A DNA stretch of 51,934 nucleotides, taken from a virus. Taxonomy: Duplodnaviria > Caudoviricetes. A program made the position numbers and the translations under genes. Location: positions 1 to 51,934 of IMG/VR virus record IMGVR_UViG_3300037160_000023, one strand, 5' to 3'. Shown here piece by piece: positions 1 to 51,934 of this stretch. The notes under the pieces are model-generated. The model saw nothing but the letters and a program-made list of their open reading frames with translations. It did not search any database and was not told the DNA's origin. The first letter of the stretch is position 1. The number at the start of each line of letters is the position of its first letter.

Positions 1-134
1 GCCCCCCCCCCCCGCGCCACAACCGGATACGGACCGGCGTACAGTCTCGCGTCGCGATCCAAGTCCCACGGGTCAACAGCCCAAGGCCGCCCAAAATAGC
101 AACCCCCGGTTTCGACGTACAGAGCTGCTATCAT
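1..134 (-). CDS. 5' part of a small C5-cytosine-MTase-like phage protein that continues across the junction into 51934..51403
   Basis: ATG at 134 overlaps the upstream stop (ATGA). It translates MIAALYVETGGCYFGRPWAVDPWDLDRDARLYAGPYPVVA and then runs into a poly-G run. The window end resumes CQRWGNFYAG, as expected for a ...VVAHPPCQRWG... motif. Confidence 0.75.
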   Translation of the reverse strand, partial: MIAALYVETGGCYFGRPWAVDPWDLDRDARLYAGPYPVVARGGG

Positions 135-595
135 TCCCACGGCATCCTACTCGCTTCACGCAAGGCCGGCTGCAGCTCATATTTCGCCAGCCTGGCGTTC
201 GCTTCACGCAATAGCATGTTTAAACCATCTATTTCTTGTTCCAGCGTACGGTTGATCGTGCGCAACGTTTCATCGGTGACAACATCAACCACGGCCGGCG
301 CATGCTGTACGGCGTCCGGCGCAACGGGGCGCGACGTACCGCCGCGTGAGCCAACGCCGCCTTTACGCGCTTCGCGGCACGTTGGGCAGTTGCGCAACAG
401 CAAGCCAGCGTTTTTCTTGAAACCCTGCAGCGCTGCCTTCGTAACGTCGATACGGATTTCTGCCTGACAGGTCTTGCAGGAACGCCGTACGCGGTACAGG
501 TGGACGAAGTTGCCGTTCCAATGTTTTGTGACGGGTTCGCCACCGCTCCAGCCTTCGGGCAGCTGGCCGGTGAACGGTTCAATTTGGTTGGTCAT
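131..595 (-). CDS. hypothetical protein with two CxxC pairs (Zn ribbon) and coiled coil; C-terminal MPWE
   Basis: 154 aa ORF with CKTC...CPTC and a heptad tail; coupled to neighbours by 4-nt overlaps. Confidence 0.75.
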   Translation of the reverse strand: MTNQIEPFTGQLPEGWSGGEPVTKHWNGNFVHLYRVRRSCKTCQAEIRIDVTKAALQGFKKNAGLLLRNCPTCREARKGGVGSRGGTSRPVAPDAVQHAPAVVDVVTDETLRTINRTLEQEIDGLNMLLREANARLAKYELQPALREASRMPWE

Positions 596-744
596 TTGGT
601 TTTAACTTTCTTCGGCTTTTTAATACCTAGTATTTCGTACGGAGAGCGCGGGCGCATTTCGAAGTGACCTAAATCGCGGGACTGTTCTTTATTGCGACGT
701 GTTGCTTCCTGTTTAGCTAACTTGTTGTTTACAGGTTTCGTCAC
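592..744 (-). CDS. small basic hypothetical protein
   Basis: GTG at 744 after AGGAGG; VTKPVNNKLAKQEATRR...KKVKTK. Confidence 0.55.
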   Translation of the reverse strand: MTKPVNNKLAKQEATRRNKEQSRDLGHFEMRPRSPYEILGIKKPKKVKTK

Positions 745-908
745 GCCCACCCTCCTAAAACAAAAACCAGCACACCCAGGAAGAACGCAGCGCCGGCAAC
801 AAGCACGGTGCCAACAATGATTTGCGCCGTACGTTTGCCGAATACAAACGCAATTGCTGCAACCAGCAACAGCGGACCCAAGCCGCCGTGTCCGTGATGG
901 TGGCTCAT
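741..908 (-). CDS. small membrane protein (2 TM)
   Basis: Not in the ORF track; translated by hand as MSHHHGHGGLGPLLLVAAIAFVFGKRTAQIIVGTVLVAGAAFFLGVLVFVLGGWA; overlaps both neighbours. Confidence 0.65.
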   Translation of the reverse strand: MSHHHGHGGLGPLLLVAAIAFVFGKRTAQIIVGTVLVAGAAFFLGVLVFVLGGWA

Positions 909-1156
909 TAGCAGCCCCCCACAACGAAACCGATACCTAGGCGGATGCCGACTTGGCCACCCCAGCGGACACCCATTTGTTTGATTGCATCCGTACGTGT
1001 CGGAGCGCTGATGGTTCCCACGATGATATCAAAGTAGAAGACGTGAAAAAGTTTCATTACATTTCCTCCGCCTTGTCCAGCAAATCCACGATCGCGTCCA
1101 GCGGCGTACGGTGCGTACATATCCTGCACCACAACGATTTCTTGCTGTGTGTTCAT
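908..1156 (-). CDS. hypothetical protein (start uncertain, 1156 or 1057)
   Basis: Fills the gap in a tightly packed minus-strand operon. Confidence 0.4.
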   Translation of the reverse strand: MNTQQEIVVVQDMYAPYAAGRDRGFAGQGGGNVMKLFHVFYFDIIVGTISAPTRTDAIKQMGVRWGGQVGIRLGIGFVVGGC

Positions 1157-50760: not shown

Positions 50761-50767
50761 TGCGGAC

Positions 50768-51352
50768 CTACCGCAGCGTGACTAAAACCGGCTTAAACGC
50801 CTTCACAATATCATTGCGTTGGCTTTCTTGTTCCGCGCTCGCCGCGCTCGCCGCGCTCCACGCCGCGCTCGCCGCGCTCGCCGCCGCGCTCGCCGCGCTC
50901 GCCGCCGCGCTCCACGCCGCGCTCGCCGCCGCGCTCGCCGCCGCGCTCGCCGCGCTCGCCGCGCTCGCCGCGCTCGCCGCGCTCCACGCCGCGCTCGCCG
51001 CCGCGCTCAAATCAACAGAATTGTCACCTTCGCACCAACGCTTAACTGCGTCGATGCAATCGGCTACCCTCTTGTCGGTTGTGTTCACAACAGCTCTGGA
51101 CGCAGCGAGCAAAACTACTGAACCAATTACGCGCCTGCGTACGGCCAAATCAGACCAATTCAGCACACGTACGCACCATAATGCGTCGGCAGCGTCGTTT
51201 GCTGTGGCTACGTCACCAAGCGAGATTAAAGCAGAGAGCGGTGTTTTCGGTGGGAGAGCTTTTCGAAGCTTTACCCAACCCGCTTCGCACGGGCCGGCAT
51301 CACGAATGCTTTGCAGCGTGAACAAAATCTTTTTGCGGTTGGGGTGGTTCAT
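50768..51352 (-). CDS. hypothetical phage protein with SAA/WSAA low-complexity repeat
   Basis: TLQSIRDAGPCEAGWVKL...DALW...(SAA)n...EQESQ. Confidence 0.75.
   Translation of the reverse strand: MNHPNRKKILFTLQSIRDAGPCEAGWVKLRKALPPKTPLSALISLGDVATANDAADALWCVRVLNWSDLAVRRRVIGSVVLLAASRAVVNTTDKRVADCIDAVKRWCEGDNSVDLSAAASAAWSAASAASAASAASAAASAAASAAWSAAASAASAAASAASAAWSAASAASAEQESQRNDIVKAFKPVLVTLR
50833..51008. repeat. in-frame tandem repeat of 9/12-nt units
   Basis: GCCGCGCTC units with GCC or CAC inserts, about 176 nt. Confidence 0.9.
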
Positions 51353-51402
51353 TGCAAATACTCCGCCCCTAAAAATGCCCGAGGCGCGGCAAGACGTTGT
51401 TC

Positions 51403-51934
51403 TTAATCCCAAGGCATCTTCGAAGTCAAGACGCTAGGGGTAGCGGTCGAAGCTATCCACAATAACAAGTCTCTGAATTCCGGTGGCGTGCCGATACGTG
51501 GTGCGCTGTTTGTGCCGCCGCCGCGTGCGGATACCTCCCCGATGCGCTTGGTTTTTGCCAGGCCGTACCTGGCGATCAACGCAGGGTCGTACTTGGGTGC
51601 GCTTTCCCCCCATCGCAGTTCTGGCAGTTCCGTACGGCAAGCAACGAGCCATGTTGGTTTTCGTGCGTAATGTCCGTATTGCCCTTGTTCAACGCAACAA
51701 GTCCACAGCCCGAAGTTGTCGGCTTTAACCCATCCGCCTTTACGCGGTGGTTTTTTCAATCCGAACCACTCCCAAGCATGGCTTCCTTTTGGGTGTTCCA
51801 ACACGCCGCCGTGCGTTCGCAGCGCAGCCAAGGCAGCTCGAAAACAACCATCATCATCGCCTTTAATTTTGCGCACGCCAGTATTTTTTATGACTAAGGG
51901 CGAGCCAGCGTAGAAATTGCCCCACCGCTGGCAC
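51403..51934 (-). CDS. 3' part of the junction-spanning C5-MTase-like protein; C-terminal MPWD
   Basis: CQRWG...GGVLEHP...QGQYGHYARKPTWL...RIGTPPEFRDLL. Confidence 0.75.
   Translation of the reverse strand, partial: CQRWGNFYAGSPLVIKNTGVRKIKGDDDGCFRAALAALRTHGGVLEHPKGSHAWEWFGLKKPPRKGGWVKADNFGLWTCCVEQGQYGHYARKPTWLVACRTELPELRWGESAPKYDPALIARYGLAKTKRIGEVSARGGGTNSAPRIGTPPEFRDLLLWIASTATPSVLTSKMPWD

Follow-up and report, generated by a model that had tools for sequence, protein, structure and literature searches.

A terminal hydrophobic-Pro-Trp peptide on nonvirion proteins of a phage lineage, a candidate Trp variant of replisome docking tips

Bacterial and phage replisomes are organized by terminal docking tips, among them the C-terminal tip (SSB-Ct) of SSB, which binds single-stranded DNA, the tails of T7 proteins, and the clamp-binding motifs. 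According to an excerpt of one account, the T7 SSB and helicase have in common an aromatic-ended tail with which they dock on the polymerase; the anchoring site of the gp2.5 tail is the front basic patch of the polymerase, and a gp4 DTDF peptide is present in PDB 6P7E (PMC12339929). DUF669 proteins, as stated in the excerpt cited (PMC13687109), belong to the SSBs, and DDDIPF is found on the copies in prophages. Here, we describe a tag of a related kind in a phage known from an entire IMG/VR virus record, IMGVR_UViG_3300037160_000023 (51,934 bp, completeness rating 99%), referred to below as the window. An initial annotation had noticed in-frame Met-Pro-Trp (MPW) at the ends of many unrelated nonvirion proteins of the window. 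Our analysis defines the tag as a short linear motif at the level of the peptide, [MFYLW]-P-W-[EQD], on flexible N- or C-terminal ends, and we argue that it probably acts as a docking tip at replicating phage DNA.

All nine MPW sites on which the initial annotation was based were recovered, each in its place and reading frame (Table 1). The word ATGCCNTGG occurs 13 times on the two strands of the window, against 1.82 +/- 1.31 expected from 500 dinucleotide shuffles (maximum, 7), while the remaining five orders of M, P, and W occur 2 to 5 times each. Measured against codon shuffles (300 shuffles, 85 genes), the in-frame enrichment was pronounced, with 10 copies in frame 0 versus 0.37 expected (maximum, 3); 2 copies were found in frame 1 versus 0.57, 1 in frame 2 versus 0.06, and 1 antisense to genes versus 1.17. 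At the protein level, MPW is present 9 times in the 83 called window proteins versus 0.44 expected (2000 residue shuffles; maximum, 4), and 6 of the 83 proteins have it within their final 6 residues versus 0.007 expected (2000 shuffles; maximum, 1). The shorter PW lies inside the terminal 20 residues 18 times versus 3.4 expected (maximum, 11; same 83 gene calls), and internal PW, obtained by subtraction, is roughly at expectation. An apparently out-of-frame copy at 48430-48438 is explained, because it is in frame in the overlapping Cys-rich gene. The MPW at 48399-48407 looks like a by-product of another frame, and the antisense copy at 44667-44675 (+ strand), opposite the helicase gene at 44273-45940, where GQRMPWKCGSN is kept in relatives, is most simply taken as a by-product of conserved helicase sequence on the opposite strand.

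Such a tag could in principle be a nucleic acid signal, namely, a DNA site (ATGCCNTGGGA), a Shine-Dalgarno TGGGAG, or the start cassette of the next gene, the peptide being a by-product. Consistent with this notion, TGGGAG at 3093-3098 is well placed, 6 nt upstream of ATG 3104, and two start codons sit within CCNTGG: GTG 140, which starts the phrog_12600 gene inside the CCGTGG of the zinc-ribbon tag, and ATG 48703, for which the primase-helicase tag supplies the CCATGG. Frame test and ortholog substitutions nonetheless both contradict the nucleic acid reading, and with it the proposal that TGGGAG acting as a Shine-Dalgarno element fully accounts for the C-terminal cases. The excess is confined to frame 0, and CCNTGG itself is found in frame 32 times versus 17.6 expected, the remaining frames being at or under expectation (codon shuffles). 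First-position swaps among F, Y, and M alter two bases of the codon, which leaves CCNTGG as the longest DNA or RNA word that is conserved. Copies at N-termini and inside proteins lack a gene downstream, the residue after W varies (E, Q, A, G, or N), and the identical peptide is found at 30% and 60% G+C. Pro codon choice follows that of the genome, all four forms occurring: the third base at 13 sites is G in 8, T in 2, A in 2, and C in 1, mirroring the genome-wide counts (CCG, 479; CCC, 188; CCA, 128; CCT, 117). We regard a nucleic acid signal as the cause of the tag as extremely improbable.

Orthologs provided the second line of evidence. Relatives comprised 28 loci around homologs of the primase-helicase (about 66-73% identity) and 10 around homologs of the large terminase (TerL), and family-wide counts over these 38 loci bear out the placement of the tag at the termini of unrelated nonvirion proteins. 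In the 1118 predicted proteins of the window and the 38 loci, xPW occurs in the last six residues of 87 (x is M in 43, F in 25, Y in 8, L in 3, W in 2, G in 2, and another residue in 4), and the reversed WP in those of 6. A terminal xPW is found in 28/29 members of the primase-helicase family, with SMPWQK in the window and ESFPWQ, ESYPWQN, GMPWA, TFPW-stop, and GGGPWG in relatives. In 10/10 TerL relatives, the N-tail carries one or two copies of xPW[EQ] (x is L, M, Y, P, F, or W) ahead of a conserved RAKLRDFD block, for example, LPWEQ..MPWEL, YPWEQ..YPWQQ, PPWET..PPWEP, and FPWQQ..WPWEP. The C-terminal tag is present in 24/24 members of the zinc-ribbon family, where an alignment of 22 sequences with 29% mean identity leaves P152 and W153 as the sole invariant columns. 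The family of the small beta-barrel protein has a C-terminal tag in 13/16 members and an N-terminal tag in 8/16, and both members of the methyltransferase family are tagged (2/2). N-terminal PW is present in 5/8 members of the 98-aa coiled-coil family and 5/10 of the putative small terminase (TerS) family; the 106-aa protein has an N-terminal tag in 18/26 family members, an undercount owing to start calls, its relatives reading [FYMW]PW[ED]PP near the N-terminus, and the residues upstream are conserved as well. A positional counterpart of the 96-aa protein in locus L107 ends GKFPWEQH. Protein-level conservation of the Cys-rich protein (48298-48612) extends over 26/28 loci, with HQPxxxMPW[ED] in its relatives, twice in some; that of the 66-aa open reading frame (ORF) at 9229..9429 is weak and limited to 3 loci, each with MPWE near the start.

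Taken together, the in-frame-only excess, the first-residue swaps in orthologs, and the use of all Pro codons establish selection on the peptide rather than on DNA, as first proposed. The motif itself had to be redrawn: ortholog tails and logos give [MFYLW]PW[EQD], which is broader than MPW. Across orthologs, the residue before PW varies among M, F, Y, L, W, and G, and that after W also varies, while P-W is retained. Logos of 79 C-terminal and 76 N-terminal nonidentical tags read [K/R/x]-[MFY]-P-W-[EQD], with a Pro-rich stretch after W in the N-terminal set. In the 79 C-terminal tags, W is the final residue in 7 and is followed by 1 to 3 residues in 69, and K stands at -2 in 24. In AlphaFold2 (AF2) models, the tags fall outside confidently folded structure: the zinc-ribbon tail beyond the last helix has a per-residue confidence (pLDDT) of about 63-65, and the N-terminal tag of the beta-barrel protein has a pLDDT of <50, the barrel being confident. 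The beta-barrel protein gave weak KOW/Tudor-like fold matches, and fold searches with the zinc-ribbon and beta-barrel models returned none below E 0.001. The tag is absent from virion proteins, as the initial annotation had it, and a C-terminal tag occurs in 0/249 proteins of the ten terminase-flank loci. Also untagged in the window lineage are PolA, the SSB, the SNF2-type helicase, the exonuclease paralogs, and a 135-aa protein (43004-43411).

Table 1. Tagged proteins of the window and terminal tips of proteins of other phages used for comparison
Source	Protein	Coordinates	Strand	Tag or tip
Window	Zinc-ribbon and coiled-coil protein, 154 aa	131..595	-	Ends RMPWE-stop, tag 134-145
Window	96-aa protein	2811..3101	+	Ends KMPWE-stop, tag 3087-3098
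Window	Putative small terminase, 106 aa	8979..9299	+	N-terminal NPW 8988-8996, TPWE 9027-9038
Window	66-aa ORF, gene status uncertain	9229..9429	-	N-terminal MKMPWEQ, tag 9376-9387
Window	Large terminase	23874..25445	+	Two N-terminal tags, MLPWEQ 23874-23891 and RMPWER 23907-23924
Window	N6/N4 DNA methyltransferase (PF01555, 7.5e-44)	43501..44268	-	Ends PMPWEI-stop, tag 43507-43518
Window	98-aa coiled-coil protein	45940..46236	-	Starts MAWLPWAEL, tag 46219-46227
Window	106-aa protein	47698..48018	-	N-terminal HRMPWEI, tag 47983-47994
Window	Small beta-barrel protein, 67 aa	48272..48475	-	LPWSD 48464-48472, AMPWEQ-stop 48278-48289
Window	Cys-rich protein, 104 aa	48298..48612	-	MPWD 48430-48438, LLPWET, terminal PTPWTPPV
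Window	PrimPol and AAA_25 primase-helicase (Pfam)	48691..50760	-	VMPWTF 48742-48750, SMPWQK-stop 48697-48708
Window	phrog_12600 protein, function unassigned	51403..51934, 5' part 140..1	-	Ends KMPWD-stop, tag 51406-51417
Flavobacterium phage elemoC	Primase-helicase			C-terminus NKEIPF
Phage PJN03	Primase-helicase			C-terminus DDFPF
Cellulophaga phi10:1	Primase-helicase			C-terminus KEDEVPF
Tenacibaculum phage JQ	Helicase			C-terminus SEDDVPF
Cellulophaga phi10:1	SSB			C-terminus ESDLPF

Two details of the initial annotation did not survive. The protein at 51403..51934, labeled C5-methyltransferase-like, has an empty Pfam result and matches phrog_12600, a family of unknown function; and the supposed RMP-TGA variant at 3444 is not a tag, since ATGCCATGA there contains the start codon of the next gene. 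The TerS label is a guess from position, because the protein has zero Pfam or PHROG matches. The phrog_12600 gene spans the window ends (140..1 joined to 51934..51403, - strand); the record must accordingly be circularly permuted, or its ends joined. At 48272-48612 (- strand), a stretch of ~180 nt is common to two conserved genes read in different frames, both of which are kept in relatives; the conserved YAVGD of the beta-barrel protein (TAT GCC GTG GGA) reads MPW(D/E) in the frame of the Cys-rich protein. GTACG or CGTACG lies 11-22 nt 3' of several tag sites (3087, 48708, 48289, 43518, 9387, and 145).

The tag is not confined to the window lineage, a restriction that the initial annotation had considered. 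Replication proteins from unrelated phages with 29-43% G+C, and from certain elements found in bacterial assemblies, have KMPWE-stop as their end too. When IMG/VR was scanned for K-M-P-W-E-stop, at least 118 stretches were found, of which 80 loci were listed; among the listed loci, the match ends an ORF of at least 60 codons in 73, 41 of these ORFs having at least 400 codons, and 68 of the 73 come from contigs with <45% G+C. The majority of the listed bearers are T7-like Toprim-DnaB primase-helicases of ~570 aa, and others include a 130-aa HExxH protein ending FPWEKMPWE, small OB-like proteins, a DUF669 protein, and a PD-(D/E)XK-like exonuclease. In a homolog search, the low-GC primase-helicase orthologs end in [ML]PW[ED] in 80/80 cases, with T in 32, A in 17, G in 11, and C in 11 as third base of the Pro codon, and their tails have [DE][DEN]K before MPWE. 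In one such locus (G004), ERF, a PDDEXK nuclease, RNR, and ThyA are among the genes adjoining the tagged primase-helicase. In L177, L175, and similar loci, the gene 0-1 nt after the primase-helicase stop often starts MPWNK, MAWKK, or MAWGKK. Cultured Bacteroidota-phage homologs of the low-GC primase-helicase end instead in acidic-[IVF]PF (4/4; Table 1), and a PW tag was found in 0/97 coding sequences examined in Cellulophaga phage phi10:1.

A search of bacterial and archaeal genomes (596 Gb) gave 46 matches to [DE]KMPWE-stop versus a rough chance estimate of ~35, and no conserved host family with this ending emerged. The real tails in cellular genomes are mostly phage-like: phage helicases in metagenome-assembled genomes (MAGs), a canonical SSB, DUF669, a zinc-ribbon protein, and one DnaE. 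The SSB (L254; PF00436, 7.8e-36) ends PPPQAGEKMPWE after a low-complexity linker. The DUF669 proteins L119 and L259, taking the viral and cellular searches together, both end KMPWE. The DnaE, a chromosomal-looking Pol III alpha subunit (PF07733, 3.8e-92) of a Kiritimatiellia MAG (L267, 4305-7970, - strand), ends AEKEKMPWE. Host DnaE was rejected as a model for the tail, five DnaE-type genes of four other genomes (Roseovarius with two copies, Caulobacterales, Proteiniphilum, and Flavobacteriaceae) lacking it.

The reading that we favor, and consider probable, is that the tag is a docking tip for one or more shared partners at replicating phage DNA, binding and a common receptor being part of what we infer by analogy. 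Insertion of the hydrophobic residue, Pro, and Trp into a pocket of the partner protein would be supplemented by a polar contact from the next acidic or amide residue or from the free carboxylate; docking of this kind is known from bacterial SSB, with its acidic-[IL]-P-F tip, and from T7 gp2.5 and gp4, with their aromatic-ended tails. Other phages carry the tip on a single protein of replication or recombination, or on a few (SSB, primase-helicase, or exonuclease). In the window lineage, it has spread to at least 10 protein families, among which are the primase-helicase, a zinc-ribbon protein, a methyltransferase, small early proteins, and the two subunits of the terminase; the same partner or partners would then bring these proteins together at replicating phage DNA.

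Whether the bearers answer to one reader can be addressed from the residue before PW. It agrees within a genome in 77/175 pairs versus 47 +/- 5 in 5000 within-family shuffles (maximum, 68), in a test from which shared descent was only partly removed, six near-duplicate genomes having been collapsed by eye. YPW is shared in one lineage by the primase-helicase, the zinc-ribbon protein, the beta-barrel protein (65-67 aa), the 106-aa protein, and TerL; in another, two proteins bear GPW, and the window has M or L throughout. This within-genome agreement points to a shared, coevolving reader. A generic sticky tip without a single hub, each bearer having its own partner (the TerL N-tail the small terminase, the helicase tail a polymerase, the SSB tip a recombinase), would fit the facts that other phages carry the tip singly, on SSB, helicase, or exonuclease, and that TerL and the putative TerS both have N-terminal copies; SSB-Ct itself binds many different proteins, according to the portions of the two sources cited (PMC10164576, PMC3632105). 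We consider it unlikely, since a concerted shift of the residue before PW across five families of a lineage is more easily explained by one reader, and the grammar is identical on all bearers. As for who the reader might be, the balance tilts slightly toward a conserved host replication protein rather than a phage one, because unrelated phages that have no detectable protein in common with the window phage use the same tip, and the five low-GC records searched also lack a family A polymerase; phage PolA, phage SSB, or another phage protein is a possible receptor in the window lineage. No candidate for a phage receptor common to the window and the low-GC phages was obtained: window proteins compared by tblastn with two complete low-GC phages yielded a single weak tail-fiber match, and hidden Markov models of window families with at least 4 members, run against 4562 ORFs of other tail-bearing loci, gave the L119 helicase and two marginal matches. 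Complex prediction for Caulobacter DnaN (a Swiss-Prot stand-in), the OB part of the phage SSB, and a 32-residue primase-helicase tail, run without controls, returned a score of 0.00, which bears on binding in neither direction.

Two further explanations were weighed. Degrons at protein ends are familiar (ssrA, ClpX N- and C-motifs), and the tag, being terminal, exposed, carried by many nonvirion proteins, and absent from virion proteins, might serve as a degradation or stability signal by which a host or phage protease or adaptor times the turnover of early and middle proteins. This is quite unlikely: the tag sits on SSBs and replicative helicases exactly where the known docking tip sits, it is often in tandem, to our knowledge it is unlike known ClpX, ClpA, or Lon signals, and no protease or adaptor gene was recognized in the window (49 ORFs scanned, of 83 gene calls plus 5 further ORFs). 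Where the ssrA-like or ClpX C-motif has a nonpolar or basic end and a free carboxylate that is recognized, the tags end in E, Q, or D or run on by another 1-3 residues, and roughly half of them are N-terminal. Alternatively, the tag could be a replication-compartment sticker or a mimic of single-stranded DNA that binds OB folds or the G/P/N/Q-rich tail of the phage SSB, so that tagged proteins concentrate on SSB-coated DNA. That SSB tail, 120 residues long, has no acidic tip and a conserved end of its own, and the excerpted account of T7 has the gp2.5 tail competing with single-stranded DNA for its own groove (PMC12339929). Many tags, however, are flanked by basic residues, and the low-GC phages have no detectable protein in common with the window phage, which makes a sticker or mimic very unlikely in our estimate.

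Several observations weigh against the docking reading or limit its reach, beyond the residual shared descent in the pair test. Three C-terminal sites double as signals for the next gene (the Shine-Dalgarno-like 3093-3098, GTG 140, and ATG 48703), so part of the local conservation may be shared with these translation signals. Gene starts were our own crude calls, which makes the N-terminal tag counts approximate. Some tags may lie in folded domains, as with LNPWEG of the GNAT protein (32061-32552). K or R, not an acidic residue, often stands at -2 in the window lineage, unlike in SSB-Ct; and with 0-3 residues beyond W and many of the tags at N-termini, contact through a free carboxylate, as in SSB-Ct, is not general. 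Finally, two complete low-GC phages have one tagged protein apiece, which confines the many-clients picture to the window lineage.

The spread of the tag onto terminase subunits, methyltransferases, and small proteins of unassigned function suggests a physical coupling of replication, DNA modification, and packaging. The tag would be a handle for identifying the platform protein, host or phage, and gives several proteins of unassigned function a likely place of action, replicating phage DNA. The motif could be used as a simple annotation feature, and the peptide as bait. More tentatively, and less likely than not, hydrophobic-Pro-Trp-[Glu/Gln] might be a widespread and so far unrecognized phage address code, a Trp-based counterpart of the SSB tail tip, that is read by a conserved host replication protein across bacterial phyla and has been extended in this alphaproteobacterial-type lineage to at least 10 clients, a network in which methylases, terminase, primase-helicase, and small regulators would all be tied to a single platform on the replicating DNA; a second, Trp-based tip ranging from Bacteroidota-type to alphaproteobacterial-type phages would be a new interaction code. 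We found no description of an MPW-type tip in the full-text literature, a body that leaves most subscription journals and supplements outside its scope. The interest of the tag lies in its breadth across phages, its link to the SSB tip, and its unusual spread onto terminase and methylase.

The phage itself has no close relative among GenBank phages (blastn, tblastn). Recognizable genes of the window (Pfam, PHROG) include, besides the PrimPol and AAA_25 primase-helicase, a family A polymerase, an SNF2/DEAD-type helicase, and a PD-(D/E)XK-type exonuclease; TerL matches phrog_2 (7e-20), and the N6/N4 methyltransferase and a MazG-like pyrophosphatase were recognized as well. GcrA is an alphaproteobacterial regulator, and because the window encodes a GcrA homolog (PF07750, 1.8e-19), an alphaproteobacterial host is suggested. 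The SSB (40473-41456, - strand) is Enc34/DUF2815-like, an assignment made solely via language-model and structure look-alikes, and a related-locus search with it as the query returned zero relatives. Its OB part spans ~200 aa and is followed by a ~120-residue tail in which Gly, Pro, Asn, and Gln abound; the tail has no acidic tip, and its end is kept across 21 orthologs (L001-L028) as NPF[AG]PR, PFPGR, or [AT]WP[SQ]R, which looks like a second, distinct tip motif. At 15665-17717 (+ strand), three adjacent genes have near-identical N-termini (MVYDPATDFLALWR, MSYDPTTDFLGLLR, and MSYSPITDFIALLR), which look like an attachment module common to alternative tail fibers or spikes.

Among known systems, SSB-Ct offers the closest comparison, and the analogy with it drawn in the initial annotation proved apt: the tag ends true SSBs and replaces acidic-hydrophobic-Pro-Phe in homologous primase-helicases. 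As in SSB-Ct, a hydrophobic-Pro-aromatic core ends a disordered tail; MPWE lies at the extreme C-terminus of a PF00436 SSB (outside the window, whose bearers are not SSBs); and MPWE and the acidic-hydrophobic-Pro-Phe tip alternate at the same position of orthologous primase-helicases. In contrast to SSB-Ct, defined strictly by an acidic run followed by [IL]-P-F, the tag has Trp in place of Phe and usually 1-3 residues after the aromatic, and it is also found N-terminally and in tandem. The SSB system has one tip bearer and many pocketed partners, whereas the window phage has the tip on at least 10 non-SSB proteins.

The T7 system is matched in that the helicase and SSB of phi10:1 have matching tips, as do T7 gp4 and gp2.5, and in that the low-GC bearers are T7-like Toprim-DnaB proteins. 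A T7-type receptor is not general, however, since a PF00476 family A polymerase was found in 0/5 tail-bearing low-GC records, 3 of which are at least 90% complete. Clamp-binding motifs (QL[SD]LF or QLxLxL, and the PIP box) likewise place a short terminal peptide on many unrelated DNA enzymes that share one hub, and the hexapeptide class ends L-x-L, e.g., L-P-L in Hda. In the tag logos, Trp is invariant and there is no Q/L preference at -3 or -4, unlike in these motifs, and no clamp gene was recognized among 49 scanned window ORFs. Phage proteins are known to use the host clamp, as in the case of MuC of phage Mu (PMC12867686, in the excerpt cited). On paper, the tag also has the pattern of the tryptophan-acidic motifs of eukaryotes, often paired and in disordered regions, a likeness that we treat as a lead only; no TPR protein was found in the window. 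Such motifs, [LM]-x-W-[DE], are read by the TPR domains of kinesin light chains. Since orthologous primase-helicases carry either a Pro-Phe tip or MPWE, and SSBs likewise carry either, the best reading by analogy is that hydrophobic-Pro-Trp-[EQD] is a Trp variant of the SSB/T7 docking-tip family, one that would act like SSB-Ct without being SSB-Ct itself.

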